A DNA stretch of 64,000 nucleotides. It comes from Patescibacteria group bacterium. GTDB taxonomy: Bacteria > Patescibacteriota > Minisyncoccia > Minisyncoccales > RBG-13-36-15. The position numbers and the translations under genes are program-made. Every line of letters starts with the position of its first letter. Positions within the stretch are counted from its first letter, which is position 1. The notes beneath the pieces are model-generated. The model did no database searches. It worked only from the letters and a program-made list of their open reading frames with translations, and was not told the DNA's origin. Of this stretch, positions 12,503 through 22,622 are shown one piece after another. Location of the stretch: positions 8,474 through 72,473 of the forward strand of contig JAHCSE010000004.1 of NCBI GenBank assembly GCA_018609195.1, in the 5' to 3' direction.

Positions 12503-13594
12503 ATGGCATCTATTATTGCTCACTTTAAAAAATTAGATTGGATAATTATTTTTTCTGTCCTGCTGCTGGTTGCCATTGGTCTTTTATCAATATATAGCTC
12601 CTCCCTATCTGGAGATTTTTTGAATTTTAAAAAACAGATTATTTTTTTAGGAATAGGCTTATTCATCCTGGTTTTATTTAGTTTTTTTGATTGGAGAGTG
12701 TTCAGAGATAATCCCTATTTAATTTTAGTTCTCTATTTTTTTTCTTTATTGGCTTTAGTCGGTCTATTTTTTTTAGCTCCAGAAATTAGAGGGGTGAAGA
12801 GCTGGTACAGATTGGGTCCTCTGGCTTTTGATCCAATAGAATTTACCAAAATTATTTTGATTATTCTGTTAGCTAAATTTTTTTCAATGAGGCATATCGA
12901 AATGTATCGTGTAGTGCATATTCTCCTTTCTGGAATGTATGTTTTCTTACCAGCTACCTTAATTTTTTTCCAGCCAAATTTTGGGTCGGCCCTCATCTTA
13001 ATTATTTTTTGGATAGCTATTTTAATTATTTCTGGGATAAAAACTCGCCATTTTTTAATTTTAATTATTTTGGGATTACTATCTCTAATTTTGATTTGGT
13101 CATTTTTATTAAAAGATTATCAACAAGAGAGAATTATTAGTTTTCTCCAACCTCAGATTGAACCTTTAGGAATTGGCTGGAGTCAGAAACAAGCTCAAAT
13201 TGCTATAGGAACAGGTGGAATTTTTGGTCAGGGAATTGGCCAGGGTTCTCAAACTCAATATGGGTTTTTAACTGTTCCCCAGACTGATTTTATTTTTTCT
13301 GCCATTGCTGAAGAAATGGGATTTTTTGGGGTTACAATTTTATTAATCCTTTTTTCTATTTTAATCTGGCGGATTTTTAAAATTGCCCTTTTAGCTAAAA
13401 CCAATTTCTCCCGGCTTTTTGCTGTGGGATTCGCCACCCTTTTAATTTCTCAGGCTTTCATCCACATTGGAATGAATTTAGGGCTTTTGCCCATTATCGG
13501 TATATCCTTGCCCTTGGTTAGTTATGGAGGATCGGGTTTGATTGCTACTTTTATCGGATTAGGGATATTGCAAAGCATCAGAACTAAAGCCTGA
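12503..13594 (+). CDS. SEDS-family peptidoglycan polymerase (FtsW/RodA)
   Basis: 363 aa, about 10 TM helices. C-terminal LPLVSYGGSGLIA motif typical of FtsW/RodA/SpoVE. Confidence 0.85.
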   Translation: MASIIAHFKKLDWIIIFSVLLLVAIGLLSIYSSSLSGDFLNFKKQIIFLGIGLFILVLFSFFDWRVFRDNPYLILVLYFFSLLALVGLFFLAPEIRGVKSWYRLGPLAFDPIEFTKIILIILLAKFFSMRHIEMYRVVHILLSGMYVFLPATLIFFQPNFGSALILIIFWIAILIISGIKTRHFLILIILGLLSLILIWSFLLKDYQQERIISFLQPQIEPLGIGWSQKQAQIAIGTGGIFGQGIGQGSQTQYGFLTVPQTDFIFSAIAEEMGFFGVTILLILFSILIWRIFKIALLAKTNFSRLFAVGFATLLISQAFIHIGMNLGLLPIIGISLPLVSYGGSGLIATFIGLGILQSIRTKA

Positions 13595-13860
13595 CAGCCA
13601 AAAGCCTGAAAGCTAAACAGCCTAGGGCCGTTAATATTACTGAGGGAAGCAGGAGGCGAACAATAAAAAATTGGAAACACTTTTATCTGATAACCGATAC
13701 TTCCTTTTAAGTTATGAATTGGGCTATATCATTAAAAAAGAGGTAACTAACTAACCAAGTTAGGGAAATAGGTAAAATGTTTTTTGGACTAAGCCGAGGA
13801 CTGTAAGGCTGGAGGCTGTAGGGCTGAGAGGCTGGCAAAGAGTTTTCCCCAGTCTCAGTC

Positions 13861-13889
13861 TTGACAAAGGTATTGGATATCCGATAATA
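13861..13889 (+). promoter_or_regulatory. candidate sigma70-type promoter
   Basis: TTGACA (13861-13866), 16-17 nt, GATAAT/ATAATA (13883-13889). Confidence 0.4.
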
Positions 13890-13921
13890 AAAAAAGCTGA
13901 GGAATAATCTCAGCTGGCTCT

Positions 13922-14036
13922 AAAAAAAAACATGCCTCTTCGGCATGTCCGCCGATGAGGCGGAAAATAAAGAAGGCCCATAAAATCAGGCCGAAATCTT
14001 GGGAGAATTCAAAGCCGATTTTTCTTTGAGCCTTCT
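13922..14036 (-). ncRNA. candidate small RNA (about 115 nt), unclassified
   Basis: Minus-strand promoter TTGACA (14070-14065), 16 nt, TAAAAT (14048-14043). Internal hairpins, including CCGCC-tcatc-GGCGG. Terminator CATGCC-gaagag-GCATG plus U9 (13947-13922). A second hairpin plus U7 lies at 13914-13889. Confidence 0.4.
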
Positions 14037-14064
14037 CACTTGATTTTACTCAACCAAAAATTTT

Positions 14065-14149
14065 TGTCAAGCCCTCCTAACTTTTTGGACCAGAGCCCCT
14101 GGCTCTCGATTGGACGAAAGCCAGTCCAAAAAGTTTGGAGGGCAAGCCC
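14065..14149. repeat. hairpin element IR1 (arms GCCCTCC.AACTTTTTGGAC / GTCCAAAAAGTTTGGAGGGC)
   Basis: Arms at 14065-14090 and 14124-14149 match 21/22 as an inverted repeat. The left end carries TTGACA on the minus strand. Confidence 0.85.
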
Positions 14150-14185
14150 TTATCTCCCAAATTTTTGGGCTATGGATAACTAGAT

Positions 14186-14473
14186 ATGCATTATGTTTAT
14201 GCTATCCAGGGTAAGAAAAATAAAAAGATATATATTGGTTATACCAACGATTTGCGAAAAAGATTTAAAATGCATAATTTAGGAAAAGTATTTTCTACTC
14301 AACCATATAAACCATTTGATTTGATATATTACGAGGCTTATCGAAATAAAAATGACGCTGTAGAAAGAGAAAAATTTCTTAAATCTGGTTGGGGAAAGAA
14401 TTATATGAAGCGAATCCTTAAACATTATTTTGCTGCCCAAAAATTTGGGAGGGCAAGTCCGCCCAAATTTTGA
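14186..14473 (+). CDS. small GIY-YIG nuclease-superfamily protein
   Basis: 95 aa. N-terminal YVYAIQGKKNKKIYIGYTNDLRKRFKMHN (GIY...YIG, conserved R). The last 13 codons are read from a repeat arm. Confidence 0.8.
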   Translation: MHYVYAIQGKKNKKIYIGYTNDLRKRFKMHNLGKVFSTQPYKPFDLIYYEAYRNKNDAVEREKFLKSGWGKNYMKRILKHYFAAQKFGRASPPKF

Positions 14474-14500
14474 GAAACAAAACTTGGGAGGGCAAGCCCT
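14436..14500. repeat. two tandem half-copies of the IR arm (TTGGGAGGGCAAG[T/C]CC)
   Basis: ccaaaaatttgggagggcaagtcc (14436-14460) and caaaacttgggagggcaagccc (14478-14500). Confidence 0.8.
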
Positions 14501-14526
14501 AAAGTTTAATTTTTAGGATAACTTCA

Positions 14527-17379
14527 ATGAATAATAAAGAAGAATCAAAATATATTTCTCTTCAGGAAGCTACAAAATACTGTTCCTATTCTCAGGATTA
14601 TTTATCTTTGCTGGCGAGAACCGGAAAATTGAAGTCAGTAAAGATTGGCAGGAATTGGGTGACTACCAAAGAATGGATTGAGGAATATATAGAAAGAGTG
14701 AAAGAGTTTAATAATTATAATCGGTTACCCAAAAAGAATCTCATCAGGGTTGAAGTTAAATTCGAGGAAGAGGAAATCTCAGAAAGTCCGTCCCCATTAT
14801 CTGAGTCTTCAGAGGACACTTCACCTTTTCAAGAGTTGCCAAAAGTTAGACAACCAGAGCAAGCCCCCCTCCTTATTTTAGCTTTTGCCCTGGTTTTTGT
14901 TTTACTGATAGCTGCCGGAATTTTTGGTAAAGAGAATTTCAAAAATGCTTTTCAACAGATCGATCCTTATGTAACAGCAATTAATCAAGAAGTTGATGAA
15001 GGAATTGTCCAAGGATGGAAAGGGATTCAGAAAGGGGTTCAGGGGATTGGTGGAGCTGGAGATTTTGTTTTTGAAGGGGCAGCTAAATCTTTTGAAGAAA
15101 GTTTTGTTACGGTCTCTAGGGATGCTTATCAATTCTCCCGGGAAGCTGTTTCCATGTTTGGAGAAATTACGGTTCTCGGTTCAGTAGGGGCTAATCAATT
15201 AGCTGAGGTTTCTCAGGAAATTCCAAAATCAATTTTGGAATCGATAAAAAACATTGGCCAATCAATAGGCCAAGGAACAAAAAATATGGCCTCTGGTATT
15301 AGTTCTCGGCTCTCAGGTTTGGCTCAATTCGTCAGCCAGCTTTTCAAAAGAGAAACACTGGTTAAAGTAGAAAAAGAAGTAATACCCGAAGAGTTAGAAA
15401 AAGAAATTGCTAAATTGGCAGATGAGATTGGAAAATTAAAACTGAGAGGATTTCCAGAAAAAGGTCCTCAAGGTCCTCAAGGTTCGCCTGGACCTCCTGG
15501 TCCTCAAGGTCTCTCCGGGCCTCAGGGCCCCACTGGTCCTCAAGGTCCCTCGGGCCCTCCAGGACCCTCTGGGCCTCAAGGAGTGGCAACTCTAGCTGCA
15601 CGTTTTGCAAATTTAAGCACCAATACCGTTTCCATCGGAGGTAATTTTGATTCTCTCAACATAGGAAGAGGGAATCTTACCGTTGATTCAGCTGGAAGTC
15701 TTACTACCTCAGGTTCTCTTACTGTTTCAGGAACAATTACAGAAGGAGGAACCTCCCTAACCTCCAAATATATTGGTATTCCCTCAGGCTCTACTCAGGG
15801 AGATGTTCTCTATTACAGTGGGGCTGCTTGGGCAAGATTAGCAGCAGGGAGCTCTGGCCAATTTTTACAAACCCAAGGTTCCGGAGCTAATCCTGTTTGG
15901 GCAACAGTAACTTCTGGTTCTACTCTCTGGACAGACGGAGGCACTGTAACTTATCTAACCGCAATCTCTGATGATCTGGCCCTGGGAGGAACTGATTCCA
16001 CTGCTCCCTTCTTCATGGATGTTTCAACTGGGAGCCTGGCACTCACTGGTTCTCTCACCGGAACCGTCCTCAACTTAACTGGTCTCACCAACCAGATTGT
16101 TTTAGATTCAGACGGAACAAACACTGGAACCTTAACCATGGCTTCTCTTTCTGCTTCAAGAACCTGGACCTTACCTAATGCTACCGGCACTGTGATCACC
16201 GCAGGAAACCTCACTGATATCACTTCTGTTACCGGGTTAAACACCCAAAATGCCCTCCAACTTGGTCCCTTCGGTTCCTCAGCAGGAAACACAGGAGAGA
16301 TCAGGTTCTTAGAACTTGCTGCCAGTGGTACTAACTATGTAGGATTTAAAGCTCCTGATGCCATTACCACCAATGTAATTTGGACTCTTCCTGCAGCAGA
16401 TGGCACAGCAGATCAGGTCTTATCCACTAATAGTTCAGGAGTTCTCTCCTGGGCTACTGCCGGAGGTCTCTTTACTGATGGCGGAACCACCACCTATCTG
16501 ACCTCAACCACTGATGATTTAGCCCTTGGAGGCACAGATTCCACTGCTCCCTTCTTCATGGATGTTTCAACTGGGAATTTGACTCTCACAGGTGATCTTG
16601 CTGTCAACGGTGGGGATATTACTTCAACTGGCGCACTTACAATCACGCCTGGAGCTGGAACCAACTTCAATATTGCTCTTTCAACCACTGGAGATTTTGC
16701 CGTCAACACCAATCAACTCTTTGTTGATACCTCAACCGGCCGCGTCGGCATCGGGACGGCGAGTCCAGCCTTCAAACTTGATGTGTTAGGCAGTATCAGA
16801 GCCTCGGACGCCTTTCTGTTCTTCGACGGCTCCACTCAAGCTATGGCAAGCACTCCCAGTGGATTTTCCTGGCGTGTCACTACAGCTTCCTTCCTCCAGT
16901 TATTTAACGTAGCAGGAGAGGAAACAAATCCCCGAGGCGTTTTCTTCAAGCCTGACGGAACAAAGATGTATATTATAGGACTTATTGGTGATGATGTCAA
17001 TGAATATAACTTGTCAACTCCCTGGGATGTCTCAACTGCTTCGTTCCTCCAGTTATTTAGCGTATCAGGAGAGGAAACAGTCCCTACAGGCGTTTTCTTC
17101 AAGCCAGACGGAACAAAGATGTATGTTATAGGGTCTACTGGTGATGACGTCAATGAATATAACTTATCAACTCCCTGGGATGTCTTAACAGCTTCGTTCA
17201 ACCAGTTATTTAGCGTGGCAGGAGAGGAAACAGTCCCTACAGGCCTCTTCTTCAAGCCAGACGGAACAAAGATGTATGTTATAGGGCAAAGTGGTGTTGA
17301 TGTCAATGAATATAACTTATCAACTCCCTGGAATGTCTTAACAGCTTCGTTCCTCCAGTTATTTAGCGTATTAGGATAG
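14527..17379 (+). CDS. giant surface-fibre protein, N-terminal part (HTH, TM, collagen-like, tail-fibre-like repeats, 51-aa repeats); ends at in-frame TAG
   Basis: 950 codons. N-terminal excisionase-type HTH ([46 protein letters not shown]), TM helix [22 protein letters not shown], 13 G-X-Y triplets, repeated [16 protein letters not shown] blocks. Confidence 0.85.
15463..15579 (+). repeat. collagen-like G-X-Y tract (13 triplets)
   Basis: [39 protein letters not shown], read in the gene frame. Confidence 0.9.
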
Positions 17380-17634
17380 GAAATAGTCCCTACAGGCGTT
17401 TTCTTCAAGCCAGACGGAACAAAGATGTATGTTATAGGGACTGCTGGTGATGAGGTCAATGAATATAACTTATCAACTCCCTGGGATGTCTTAACTGCTT
17501 CGTTCAACCAGTTATTTAGCGTGGCAGGAGAGGACACAGCCCCTACAGGCGTTTTCTTCAAGCCAGACGGAACAAAGATGTATGTTATAGGAGATAATGA
17601 TGATGATGTCAATGAATATGACTTAGGCCTTATC
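16870..17634 (+). repeat. five tandem 153-nt (51-codon) repeats inside the giant gene
   Basis: Units start at 16870, 17023, 17176, 17329 and 17482. Consensus W[DN][43 protein letters not shown]. Confidence 0.9.
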
Positions 17635-19395
17635 ATAGAAGGCAACGTCGGCATTGGGACGACGGGGCCGGGGTCCAAATTAGATGTTACTACCAACTCT
17701 CTGGGCATTACCCAGACTAATACTTCTGGCCTGGCTCTGGTCAATACCACTGCTGCTGCAGCTGGGTTGCAGCAGATATCCCCAGCTCTAAGGTGGAGAG
17801 GGTTTGGCTGGAAAACCGGTGGTCCTAACCCTGCTAGTCAGTCAGTCGACTTTAGATCTTTCGTGAGGCCAATTCAAGGAGCAGCCGCTCCCACGGGTGG
17901 ATTAGATTTTCAAAGCAGTATTAATGGTGGAGCTTACAGTGACTTGTTGACGATTTTAAGCACGGGCAACGTCGGCATCGGGACGGCGAGTCCTATAAAA
18001 AAACTCTCAGTCGCCGGTAAATTTTATTCACACAAAGACGCTGATATCACAGCCAGAAATTACCTCACTGATAATTCCTGGGTCTCCAGAACTTCAGCCG
18101 CTGACAATAGTTGGTTTGCCATAACCTGGTCTCCGGAGCTTGGCCTGTTCGCCGCCGTAGCTGACTCCGGCACAGACAACCGGGTCATGACCTCTCCAGA
18201 CGGCATTACCTGGACAATCAGAACTTCAGCCGCTGACAATGATTGGCTTGGCATAACCTGGTCTCCGGAGCTTGGCCTGTTCGCCGCCGTAGCTGCCACT
18301 GGCACAGGCAACAGGGTCATGACCTCGGTCAGCTCAAAATTGTCGCCTATGGTGAGCGTAGTAGCTGCTACGGACGACCGCGAAACTTTGTGTATAGCTA
18401 TCGGTGGCGGTGTTGTTACTAGAGATGCCGCAGGCAATGACTGCGACATTTCCTCTGCACGCTTCAAATATAATATTGAGGAACTTGATATTAACGGCAT
18501 TGACATCGTGAATTCTTTTAAACCTTCGTCCTTTATTAAAAATTCTGATAAGACAAACAGAATACAATGGGGATTTATTGCTGAAAATATTGCGGTAAGC
18601 AACCCACACCTTGCTTTGTATGACGAAGATGGTCTTCCGTATTCAATATCAAAGTATGGAATTATGGCGGTACTCGCCAAATCCATTCAAGAAATCTCCC
18701 AGCGCATAGATCTAACAGAAGAAAGCTTGGCATTCTTACAGCCTGACAGCCAACAGCCAGAAGGAGATTCTTTACTTGATGGTTTTGTTCAAAAAATAAA
18801 ACAAGCCTTAGCTTCCCTGGGGCTCGTAATTGAAAATGGAATTTTACAGGTTCAGAAATTAGTCGCAGGTGTTATAGAGACCGAAAATTTGAAAGTGGGA
18901 AGCCCAGAGAAGCCAACTGGCGTTACTCTCTATGATGAGGTGAGTGGTCAGTCATATTGTATTAAGATACGAAACGGGCAGATGGTAAGTTATGAGGGAG
19001 AATGCCAAGCAGGAAACCCTTCTGACCAAGCACTAACTGAAGAGCCGCCGGTTGAACAATCACCAGTAGAGCCATCTTCTACCGAACCACCTCCCACTGA
19101 GCCCCCGGTAGAGCCATCTCCAGCTGAGGAACCTTCAGGAGAACAACCCCCCACTGAAGAGCCTACGATTGAAGAACCACCAGCTGGACAAGAACCTCTG
19201 GTTGAAGAACCGCCAATAGGGGAGCCTCCATTAGAAGAACCACTTGCTGGAGAATCACCACCTACTGAGGAGCCACCAATTGAGGAACCACCTCCTTTAG
19301 AAGAACCACCAGCTGAGGAGGAACCTCCAGCTGAGGAACCCATAGTTGAAGAACCAGTTGTTGAGGAACCTGTTCTGGAGGAGCCAGCTGAATAA
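17425..19395 (+). CDS. giant surface-fibre protein, C-terminal part (same frame as 14527..17379; frame open from 17380)
   Basis: 656 codons. Contains VGIGT..P..KL.V tail-fibre motifs, two BNR/Asp-box-containing repeats (SPDGITW), an S74-type intramolecular chaperone signature (SSARFKYNIEEL...WGFIAENI) and a P/E-rich tail. Confidence 0.8.
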   Translation: MYVIGTAGDEVNEYNLSTPWDVLTASFNQLFSVAGEDTAPTGVFFKPDGTKMYVIGDNDDDVNEYDLGLIIEGNVGIGTTGPGSKLDVTTNSLGITQTNTSGLALVNTTAAAAGLQQISPALRWRGFGWKTGGPNPASQSVDFRSFVRPIQGAAAPTGGLDFQSSINGGAYSDLLTILSTGNVGIGTASPIKKLSVAGKFYSHKDADITARNYLTDNSWVSRTSAADNSWFAITWSPELGLFAAVADSGTDNRVMTSPDGITWTIRTSAADNDWLGITWSPELGLFAAVAATGTGNRVMTSVSSKLSPMVSVVAATDDRETLCIAIGGGVVTRDAAGNDCDISSARFKYNIEELDINGIDIVNSFKPSSFIKNSDKTNRIQWGFIAENIAVSNPHLALYDEDGLPYSISKYGIMAVLAKSIQEISQRIDLTEESLAFLQPDSQQPEGDSLLDGFVQKIKQALASLGLVIENGILQVQKLVAGVIETENLKVGSPEKPTGVTLYDEVSGQSYCIKIRNGQMVSYEGECQAGNPSDQALTEEPPVEQSPVEPSSTEPPPTEPPVEPSPAEEPSGEQPPTEEPTIEEPPAGQEPLVEEPPIGEPPLEEPLAGESPPTEEPPIEEPPPLEEPPAEEEPPAEEPIVEEPVVEEPVLEEPAE

Positions 19396-19473: not shown

Positions 19474-19698
19474 ATGGGGAAAATTATTACTATTCCAAAA
19501 GAATTAATTAAAAAGGGCGAATTAGTGATTATACCTCGGAAAGAATATGAGGCAATTTTGCGTGTTTTAAGGAAAAAAGCCAGAACCCAACTCAATAAGG
19601 ATCTTAAAGAGGCCCTAAAAGAGGTTAAACGAGGAAAGCTTATTGGACCCTTTGAGAACGTTAAAGATTTAATAAAATCCCTGAATAGCAAGAAATAA
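19474..19698 (+). CDS. putative antitoxin
   Basis: 74 aa basic protein, 6 nt upstream of a RelE/ParE-like toxin gene. Typical type II TA arrangement. Confidence 0.55.
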   Translation: MGKIITIPKELIKKGELVIIPRKEYEAILRVLRKKARTQLNKDLKEALKEVKRGKLIGPFENVKDLIKSLNSKK

Positions 19699-19704
19699 GA
19701 TTTA

Positions 19705-19950
19705 ATGAAGATTCTTTACGCTCCCCATTTTGAGAGAAGCTATAAATTTCTTCCCAAGGAAATTAAAAGAAAATTTAGAAAACAAGTTAATTATCTTCTG
19801 CAGAATCTACGTCATCCTTCGTTGCGGACTAAAAAGTATAATGAAAGACACGACATTTGGCAGGCCCGAGTAAATAGAAATTACCGTTTCTATTTTTTAA
19901 TTAGGGGCGATATTTATATTTTGTTAGATATTAAATTACATCCAGAATAA
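19705..19950 (+). CDS. RelE/ParE-superfamily toxin
   Basis: 81 aa. Pattern F.R.YK.LPKEIK...I..L...P...SLR.KK......IWQARVNRNYRFYF.I.GD.I.LLDI..H is typical of RelE/ParE-type toxins. Confidence 0.7.
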   Translation: MKILYAPHFERSYKFLPKEIKRKFRKQVNYLLQNLRHPSLRTKKYNERHDIWQARVNRNYRFYFLIRGDIYILLDIKLHPE

Positions 19951-22537: not shown

Positions 22538-22622
22538 GGGACTTGCCCTCCCAAATTTTTGGACTGCTTTTGCTAAATCTGAAACCCTTGGTTCCGGTCC
22601 AAAAACTTGGGAGGGCTTGACA
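22538..22622. repeat. hairpin element IR2 (inverted orientation relative to IR1)
   Basis: Arms gggacttgccctcccaaatttttggac (22538-22564) and gtccaaaaacttgggagggcttgaca (22597-22622). The reverse complement of the right arm matches the IR1 left arm 23/26. Confidence 0.85.

Follow-up and report, generated by a model that had tools for sequence, protein, structure and literature searches.

Most Patescibacteria (the candidate phyla radiation, CPR) are uncultured epibionts in which host attachment, and gene regulation with few recognisable regulators, are poorly understood. A 64,000-nucleotide (nt) stretch of a contig from this group (JAHCSE010000004.1, positions 8,474 to 72,473 of the forward strand), referred to here as the window, carries at 14527-19395 a gene that runs from a helix-turn-helix (HTH) domain through a transmembrane (TM) helix and a stalk into a long, phage-like fibre. 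We judge it to be a so far undescribed form of membrane-tethered regulator, joined to an adhesin-like fibre. Its parts and those of its upstream region are collected in Table 1.

Table 1. Features of the HTH-TM-fibre gene and its upstream region, in window coordinates (aa, amino acids; ORF, open reading frame; HMM, hidden Markov model).
Feature	Position	Strand	Description
Operator-like site O1	13684-13699	.	TATCTGATAACCGATA; two overlapping one-mismatch copies of TATCSGATA; same format as O2
Promoter and site O2	13861-13888	+	sigma-70-like TTGACA-16-GATAAT; exact TATCCGATA at 13878-13886 overlaps the −10; TATTGGATA at 13871
GIY-YIG ORF	14186-14473	+	95 aa; Pfam GIY-YIG E 6.7e-17; separate from the fibre gene
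ORF1	14527-17379	+	950 aa, stops at the in-frame TAG; HTH, TM helix, stalk, collagen, fibre segment 1, 3.2 of the 51-aa repeats
Excisionase-type winged HTH, predicted cytoplasmic	14551-14697	+	aa 9-57; Pfam, AlphaFold2, Foldseek, family HMM
TM helix, putative signal anchor, N-terminus inside	14863-14931	+	aa 113-135; Kyte-Doolittle, AlphaFold2
Extracellular stalk (predicted)	14932-15462	+	aa 136-312; heptad-like segment at its end; conserved with short-form relatives
Collagen triple-helix segment	15463-15579	+	13 uninterrupted G-X-Y triplets, aa 313-351, Pro-rich
Fibre segment 1	15580-16881	+	Gly/Thr/Ser-rich; internal duplication (16-residue block twice)
Five tandem 51-aa (153-bp) repeats, propeller-blade type	16882-17646	+	Tandem Repeats Finder: 4.9 copies, 88% identity
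In-frame TAG	17377-17379	+	codon 951, in repeat copy 4; among three clustered changes to T (TCAGGAGAGGAAACA to TTAGGATAGGAAATA)
Frame continuation	17380-19395	+	671 open codons; listed ORF begins at ATG 17425
Fibre segment 2	17647-18087	+	two NVGIGT..P..KL.V motifs
Two 44-aa repeats	18088-18351	+	one Asp-box SPDGITW at aa 1223
Peptidase_S74 / intramolecular chaperone domain	18451-18738	+	begins SSARFK; S1309, K1314; GFIAE at aa 1349-1353
Conserved C-terminal module	18796-19005	+	LGLVIENG ... KVGSPEKPTG.TLYDE.SG.SYCIKIRNGQMVSYEGEC; common to P0133, P0159 and P0254
Pro/Glu-rich low-complexity tail	19006-19392	+	~129 aa; E+P = 79 of the 132 final residues

The gene comprises two ORFs of 950 and 656 codons, ORF1 and ORF2, in a single frame with one TAG between them. 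The initial annotation read them as one polypeptide, and it was right about the shared frame and wrong in taking it to be uninterrupted. In this genome TAG is a stop rather than a sense codon, because it terminates 12 of the 52 ORFs in the window, ligA and rpoC among them; recoding is thereby ruled out. The other 51-aa repeat copies have GAG where copy 4 has TAG, and the three changes to T in copy 4 are packed within 15 nt. Past the stop, the 671 open codons encode sequence 50-63% identical to P0133, an intact Patescibacteria protein of 1518 aa, whose alignment crosses the TAG position without a break; read through, the frame would give a protein of 1622 aa. Since the post-stop codons are open and conserved, the interruption must either have arisen very recently or reflect a polymorphism or an error in the consensus or assembly.

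This leaves an appreciable chance, short of an even one, that the deposited sequence does not encode the 1622-aa protein, the gene being a recently inactivated pseudogene or the repeats containing a consensus or assembly error. The TAG is an ordinary stop here, a single copy of the 153-bp repeat has all three changes to T inside 15 nt while the copies of the array are 88% identical, and the protein collection contains the 950-aa product alone (P0125, identical to the product of ORF1), with no entry for ORF2. An exact look-up of ORF1 among contigs gave no record. The openness of the downstream codons and their identity to P0133 count against this reading, and any inactivation would have to be very recent.

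Most of the modules proposed in the initial annotation are present. The 13 collagen triplets fall at exactly 15463-15579 and score 28.2 against a gathering score of 27.2 with Pfam Collagen (PF01391). The tail-fibre-like blocks are recovered as a 16-residue block occurring twice and a VGIGT motif occurring three times in the frame, Tandem Repeats Finder delimits the five 51-aa repeats, and the Pro/Glu-rich tail of ~130 aa is also there. The S74 signature corresponds to a PF13884 (Peptidase_S74) match of 32.8 bits, above the gathering score of 22. By these profile matches the protein belongs to the S74 and Collagen families. Two labels fared less well. The Asp-box, expected in two repeats, occurs in one only and is missing from the second 44-aa repeat, and no BNR Pfam model matches the protein at E ≤ 1. 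The basis for the propeller label is an SGL match of 20.8 bits, under its gathering score of 26.3, together with the PF08450/PF10282 (SGL/lactonase) matches that close homologues of the repeat carry. The copy number of these repeats is 4, 5 or 6 across the gene and its relatives.

The phage-like character of the ectodomain is evident in several modules. The fibre modules have tail-fibre matches in PHROGs, and the 44-aa repeats are 50-55% identical to repeats of jumbo-phage proteins and of a phage 'GTA host specificity protein'. Matches of the S74 part are to the C-terminal ends of tail-fibre proteins, hyaluronidases and neck-appendage proteins; a homology search with this region gave 3 matches only. 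In alignment A2 the S1309/K1314 dyad and GFIAE are invariant, with the pattern S..R.K and GF.A. Matches in the PDB required a six-sequence subfamily profile, which found the tail fibres 8jov (4e-10) and 6f45 (1e-8), the T5 L-shaped tail fibre 8hqz (6e-5), and the intramolecular chaperone domain of MYRF, 7dc3 (4e-3); when the HTH or the S74 region was run by itself against the PDB with phmmer, no meaningful match came out. The ectodomain appears to be assembled from cassettes shared with phage receptor-binding proteins: collagen, beta-rich fibre, five propeller-blade repeats, two 44-aa repeats and S74.

Such matches raise the prospect of a prophage or tailocin tail-fibre gene, or of a chimeric join between an HTH gene and a phage fibre, and the GC content at third codon positions (GC3) does rise in the middle of the gene, to 0.515 over 17647-18450 (fibre segment 2 and the 44-aa repeats) against 0.29-0.35 for the genome. 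The surroundings make this reading scarcely credible. The gene is flanked on one side by type IV minor pilins, ligA and a gene of the shape, elongation, division and sporulation (SEDS) type that scores as RodA, and on the other by a multi-TM tetratricopeptide repeat (TPR) protein, rpoB and rpoC; no gene for a phage structural protein, an integrase or a terminase lies near it. P0133, encoded at locus L082, stands in the identical order pilins-ligA-rodA-[gene]-TPR-rpoB-rpoC and shares the architecture of the window gene: HTH, TM helix, stalk, fibre, 51-aa repeats (six, uninterrupted), C-terminal module and Pro/Glu tail. In the shared block, which takes in part of fibre segment 1, the two are 62.6% identical. 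Because this intact positional orthologue matches in both layout and neighbourhood, the fusion is not an assembly chimera, and a prophage origin is ruled out by the housekeeping context together with the orthologue.

The fusion also recurs elsewhere. P0159 (1434 aa), at a different locus, combines HTH, TM helix, collagen, fibre and repeats, and P0254 (2823 aa), an independent combination, starts with two HTHs and a TM helix, continues with a giant fibre and S74, and closes with the same C-terminal module and a Pro-rich tail. In many relatives the HTH and TM helix are continuous with the fibre. Relative to P0133, the collagen segment and residues ~1070-1395 (fibre segment 2, the 44-aa repeats and S74) have been replaced, with which the GC3 rise agrees; the gene is mosaic in origin. 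A module of the form LGL.IENG...GSP.KP.G.T.YDE..G..YC.KI..GQ.VS..G.C followed by a Pro-rich tail forms the end of several large Patescibacteria surface proteins, with or without S74.

The N-terminal domain was proposed at the outset to be an excisionase-type HTH, and its predicted structure bears this out. An AlphaFold2 model of the region, built from 36 relatives, has a predicted local distance difference test (pLDDT) score of ~96 over aa 10-60 and a beta-alpha-alpha-beta-beta-alpha fold (E9-11, H12-15, H23-32, E38-40, E43-47, H48-64). Its best Foldseek matches in the PDB are the excisionases RdfS, Pukovnik Xis and GIsul2 Xis along with BldC; the match to Pukovnik Xis has a root-mean-square deviation of 1.6 Å over 48 columns and a probability of 1.0. 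By its modelled fold, the domain is a member of the excisionase-type winged-HTH (MerR) superfamily. The family HMM gives the window HTH 104.7 bits. Pfam HTH_17 (PF12728) gives 20.9 bits with the whole ORF and 24.6 bits with the 142-aa N-terminus (E 3e-5 to 4e-4; gathering score 27), and it matches 16 of the 36 relatives, with a best E of 3.5e-11. Recognition-helix and wing residues S22, Q23, Y25, R31, K34, K39, R42, N43 and W44, several of them basic, show little or no variation. Very probably the HTH is a genuine DNA-binding domain, since genes that encode its subtype, in architectures of three kinds, have TATC(C/G)GATA sites beside them, as described below.

The single TM helix of the initial annotation is confirmed: aa 113-135 is the sole TM-grade segment, with a Kyte-Doolittle value of 3.15 against 1.33 for the runner-up, and AlphaFold2 predicts a helix across aa 113-141. 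Placement of the HTH inside the cell is likewise supported. The relatives obey the positive-inside rule at family level, with a mean of 2.96 K+R on the N-terminal side of the TM helix and 1.99 on the C-terminal side (N>C in 48, N<C in 11), and a topology with the N-terminus in and the C-terminus out (N-in/C-out) is therefore favoured for the family and for this protein.

The HTH-TM head is not peculiar to this gene. It is found at 571 loci or more in species-representative genomes, and the best 80 of these at least 571 loci, taken for detailed comparison, are essentially all from Patescibacteria (for example Nealsonbacteria, Parcubacteria and Wildermuthbacteria), a few metagenome-assembled genomes bearing other phylum labels. 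In a separate protein library, exhaustive HMMER searching recovers 2751 clusters with an E-value cutoff of 1e-3, or 946 when the cutoff is tightened to 1e-10, with members of 4310, 4384 and, at most, 6890 aa. One strong hydrophobic segment lies 35-170 aa past the HTH in 71 of the 75 HTH ORFs at the 80 loci, and some relatives have two or three HTHs in tandem. Behind this head stand ectodomains of 120 aa to more than 6000 aa and of very different kinds: a ~70-aa C-terminal domain, LVIVD or FG-GAP propellers, or unrecognised sequence of up to 2451 aa. With a 312-aa N-terminal query (HTH, TM helix and stalk), P0001-P0004 align at 42-48% identity and 92-93% coverage. The family can thus be described, from its sequences, as a constant HTH (one to three copies), TM helix and helical stalk whose ectodomain seems to be swapped freely between species. 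It is large, and apparently undescribed: NCBIfam has no model for the HTH-TM head, and nothing was found in the open-access literature on the family or on the TATC(C/G)GATA motif discussed below.

Two further observations concern the family as a whole. Across the Patescibacteria loci L001-L082 and window positions 7146-29931, a conserved order of prepilin peptidase/type IV minor pilins, ligA, rodA, HTH-TM gene, multi-TM TPR protein, rpoB and rpoC is seen, and at the fixed position downstream of rodA the ectodomain varies from ~60 to 2300 residues between species. Short forms of 230-560 aa (P0001-P0009, P0068 and the products of 20+ loci, e.g. L001, L014, L025 and L067) end in the ~70-aa domain, EGLVVIPSTEKDEE..SGIITPVF..YLYILVP, which has no Pfam match and is missing from the window protein.

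The DNA upstream of these genes is as distinctive as the head itself. Two 9-mers dominate the 150-400 nt upstream of HTH-TM genes: the palindrome TATC(C/G)GATA (motif A) and TTATCCACA (motif B). Their densities there are 1.91 and 1.29 per kb, respectively, compared with 0.10 and 0.023 per kb in the rest of these loci. Of 83 HTH-TM genes, 58 have one or the other in the 300 nt that precede them, against 7 of 309 other ORFs taken as controls (Fisher p ~3e-41, a value that overstates independence because the loci are phylogenetically related). The usual arrangement is a CCGATA half-site, motif B, ~10 nt, a TTGACA −35 element, N17 and the −10 element, with motif A between these two elements, on the −10 or shortly after it, as an operator would be. 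The window's sole exact copy of motif A in 64 kb, TATCCGATA at 13878-13886, overlaps a promoter −10, 5 of the window's 15 sites with at most one mismatch to TATCSGATA fall in 13552-13886, and the promoter-plus-palindrome arrangement is kept at L082.

The same pairing of motif and domain extends to proteins that share only the HTH. Soluble Fic-HTH proteins (P0080, P0085, P0087, P0099, P0107) carry a C-terminal HTH 63-75% identical to that of the window protein, and motif A lies within 70 nt of the ATG in five of five independent loci, three of which have a TATCGGATA-N15-TATCCGATA pair with unrelated spacers. They differ from the window protein in being soluble, in having the HTH C-terminal to Fic and in lacking a TM helix and ectodomain; the HTH subtype and the TATC(C/G)GATA sites at the gene start are the same. 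In the reverse direction, a metagenome search with the TATCGGATA-N15-TATCCGATA DNA pair alone returned 120 loci, 67 of which encode the same HTH subtype within 1.5 kb; about 8 further loci are Fic genes cut by a contig end. An association of this kind is what comparative analysis usually shows for a transcription factor that regulates its own gene. Because genes of this HTH subtype are preceded by TATC(C/G)GATA, and because the only exact copy in the window overlaps the −10, the HTH is probably a sequence-specific autoregulator.

The link between the family and rodA suggests a different role for the head. RodZ, whose HTH binds MreB, also consists of an HTH, a single TM helix and an extracytoplasmic domain, and rodA precedes 55 of 85 family HTH ORFs by no more than 1 kb, the SEDS neighbour here scoring as RodA. 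The HTH could then be a RodZ-like cytoplasmic docking domain that ties surface proteins to RodA/MreB, with the motifs bound by a different regulator; the linear motif PPENLP[IV]E, found in the cytoplasmic linker between HTH and TM helix in 17 of 77 relatives, would fit such a role. We regard this as quite improbable. RodZ has an Xre-type HTH and DUF4115, and the fold here is of the excisionase/MerR type; Pfam HTH_25 and DUF4115 have no match, the short-form C-terminal domain included, and homology to RodZ is ruled out on these grounds. Moreover, the motifs accompany the HTH with or without an adjacent rodA, and also with a Fic partner that lacks a TM helix, and the recognition-helix and wing residues, several of them basic, are invariant or nearly so. 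As an observation in its own right, PPENLP[IV]E suggests a conserved cytoplasmic partner; at aa 100-107 the window protein has only FQELPKV.

Motif B matches the textbook DnaA-box consensus exactly. At loci L003-L075 it occurs as a single copy ~10 nt upstream of the −35, often straight after the CCGATA half-site. A replication origin (oriC) is ruled out as an explanation by this usual presence of one box per locus at that position, and is also contradicted by the genes from 291 to 33168, all on one strand, with positive GC skew on both sides.

At six loci (L032, L033, L045, L060, L061 and L070), two to four copies of TATCCGATA occur inside the HTH-TM coding region, at ~+1160 to +1320 nt in L032-L061 and ~+2340 nt in L070. 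The encoded peptide is ISDN/VSDI in L070; in the other five it is a repeated LSD[I/T/M], always with the codons tTA-TCC-GAT-A. TCC is a rare choice in these AT-rich genomes, and the constancy of these codons therefore suggests a constraint at the DNA level. These clusters are possibly intragenic operators.

Taken together, the evidence inclines us, with some reserve, towards a chromosomal gene, in a Parcubacteria/Nealsonbacteria-like member of the Patescibacteria, for a single-pass, N-in/C-out, membrane-anchored and probably trimeric fibre with a phage-like ectodomain and an autoregulatory HTH, carrying one TAG in this assembly. In this model the TM helix would act as a signal anchor that inserts the protein N-in/C-out, and its heptad-like segment, collagen helix and S74 would bring three chains together. 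Outside the cell, S74 would nucleate folding of the trimer and then cleave itself at Ser1309 (S1309/K1314), shedding the C-terminal ~310 aa, while the distal modules would serve in adhesion or receptor binding. The clustered cytoplasmic HTHs would bind TATC(C/G)GATA at their own promoter and exert repression, or negative feedback, from the membrane.

Several findings weigh against this model. The TAG means that the full-length protein is possibly not made in this organism, and ORF2 has no export signal. The HTH_17 score of the window protein is under the Pfam gathering score, its TM flanks are charge-neutral (K+R 2 versus 2), and the AlphaFold2 model from S74 to the C-terminus (18334-19011; 8 sequences) has a pLDDT of 51.5 and is unusable. 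Kinship among the loci in the enrichment test inflates its p value. A distance of 640 nt separates the promoter and palindrome from the ATG, and because a GIY-YIG ORF and a hairpin-rich element intervene, the link between promoter and gene is weaker in the window than in most relatives. Finally, the sites could be bound by something else, for example by a soluble paralogue or, in the case of the TTATCCACA box, by DnaA.

A stronger version of the regulatory role, put forward in the initial annotation, would make the protein a contact-sensing transcription factor, in which engagement, tension or oligomerisation of the fibre outside alters DNA binding by the HTH inside. Contact at the surface would then act directly on gene regulation, to an extent that exceeds autoregulation. 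The predicted topology and the probable DNA-binding HTH are compatible with this, a trimerising collagen and S74 would cluster three HTHs, the operators are paired or overlapping, and some relatives have two or three tandem HTHs. It is nevertheless unlikely. The ectodomains found behind this head differ widely in kind and size, some forms having 120-300 aa and no obvious sensor, and no protease site, PAS/HAMP or other signalling element was found in the protein. The motif is nearly confined to the upstream regions of the HTH genes themselves (7 of 309 other ORFs), which favours autoregulation over a regulon. Cleavage of S74 could not signal inward either, since the domain lies outside the cell, ~1170 residues past the TM helix, and cannot free the HTH.

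Autoregulation from the membrane, the reading we favour, can be carried one step further, to a widespread Patescibacteria class of 'self-reporting' surface proteins, adhesins or fibres of up to several thousand residues. In these, a protein's own cytoplasmic, sequence-specific HTH would bind TATC(C/G)GATA at its own gene, and in some members within it, so fastening the locus to the membrane and adjusting expression to the amount of protein inserted, oligomerised or engaged. This is a speculative and doubtful extension. Were it true, it would be a one-polypeptide feedback, possibly contact-sensing, suited to ultra-small cells in which no part of the nucleoid is out of reach of the membrane.

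A comparison with known systems places the protein between two groups. The initial annotation held that it had no described bacterial counterpart, which is overstated, as ToxR and CadC are known and the same head stands on thousands of Patescibacteria proteins. ToxR, TcpP and CadC are membrane-bound one-component regulators that bind promoter DNA while anchored, and they share with the window protein a cytoplasmic DNA-binding N-terminus, one TM helix and an extracytoplasmic C-terminus, as predicted here. They have OmpR-type winged helices and small periplasmic sensors, whereas the window protein has an excisionase/MerR-type HTH_17 domain, no Trans_reg_C (OmpR/PhoB-type) Pfam match, and a ~1490-aa fibre of phage modules; its apparent target, moreover, is its own promoter.

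Phage tail fibres and tailspikes such as the K1F endosialidase, the T5 L-shaped fibre and the S16 long tail fibre resemble the ectodomain in their order of fibre then S74, in the NVGIGT..P..KL motif, in collagen and in the PHROGs matches. Unlike them, the window protein is anchored at its N-terminus to a membrane rather than a baseplate, lies among housekeeping genes and continues for ~220 aa past S74 with a Cys-flanked module and the Pro/Glu tail. The protein is therefore ToxR/CadC-like in topology and tail-fibre-like in its ectodomain, and a member of neither family. The bacterial collagen-like surface proteins Scl1/Scl2 and BclA and the class A scavenger receptors SR-A and MARCO likewise display a collagen triple helix at a surface beside a coiled coil or other trimerising element. 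SR-A and MARCO also have a type II layout of cytoplasmic N-terminus, TM helix, coiled coil, collagen and distal domain. However, none of these proteins is known to have a cytoplasmic DNA-binding domain, and Scl is anchored by sortase at its C-terminus.

The analogy with eukaryotic MYRF put forward in the initial annotation does not hold. Both proteins have a DNA-binding domain (DBD), a TM helix and an S74-type intramolecular chaperone domain (ICD). MYRF and endosialidase share a Ser-Lys dyad five residues apart and a GVIAQ motif (PMC3742440); the window protein has the same dyad spacing (S1309/K1314) and GFIAE as its form of the GxIAQ/E trimerisation motif. In MYRF, however, the order is DBD-ICD-TM, with the ICD on the side of the DBD, so that cleavage frees the DBD (PMC3742440). 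The order here is HTH (9-57), TM (113-135) and S74 (1309-1355), which would place S74 across the membrane from the HTH. With a single TM helix and S74 on its far side, MYRF-like self-release is ruled out by geometry.

The interest of the gene lies mainly at the level of its family, a very common Patescibacteria design, apparently undescribed, built around a simple protein-DNA pair. If the model is true, a large share of the big surface proteins of Patescibacteria carry a built-in autoregulatory DNA-binding head with a searchable operator, TATC(C/G)GATA, and the head would serve as a marker for candidate host-attachment proteins in metagenomes. The 60-aa domain and its 9-bp site would make a testable protein-DNA pair, and membrane-tethered gene control would extend outside the ToxR family. 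This gene is also a case in which a cellular surface fibre and phage receptor-binding proteins draw on a common pool of modules, namely collagen, S74 and host-specificity repeats.

Downstream of the gene, two adjacent ORFs (19474-19698 and 19705-19950; 74 and 81 aa) are like an antitoxin and a RelE/ParE-like toxin in size and sequence, with no Pfam or NCBIfam match. Upstream, the leader between promoter and gene contains two elements. The GIY-YIG ORF is missing at the corresponding position of L082. It is flanked by copies of TTGGGAGGGCAAGCCC at 14134-14149, 14445-14460 and 14484-14499, with another on the minus strand at 22539-22554; the window has 7 matches to this sequence at up to three mismatches against 0.47 expected. 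GGATAACT is also found on either side of the ORF, which looks like a small mobile cassette inserted in the leader of the gene.

The second element, on the minus strand at 13925-14036, is a candidate small RNA with a 66-nt hairpin and two terminator-like hairpins (minimum free energy −46.4 kcal/mol, z −5.2), preceded by promoter-like sequence at 14070-14043. An Rfam search of the leader (13595-14530) gave no credible family, and nhmmer with the ~110-nt element found nothing past two close relatives. About 110 nt of this hairpin element are 83% conserved upstream of the related genes at L081 and L082. Alternatively, it could be a plus-strand 5' leader (z −4.4).

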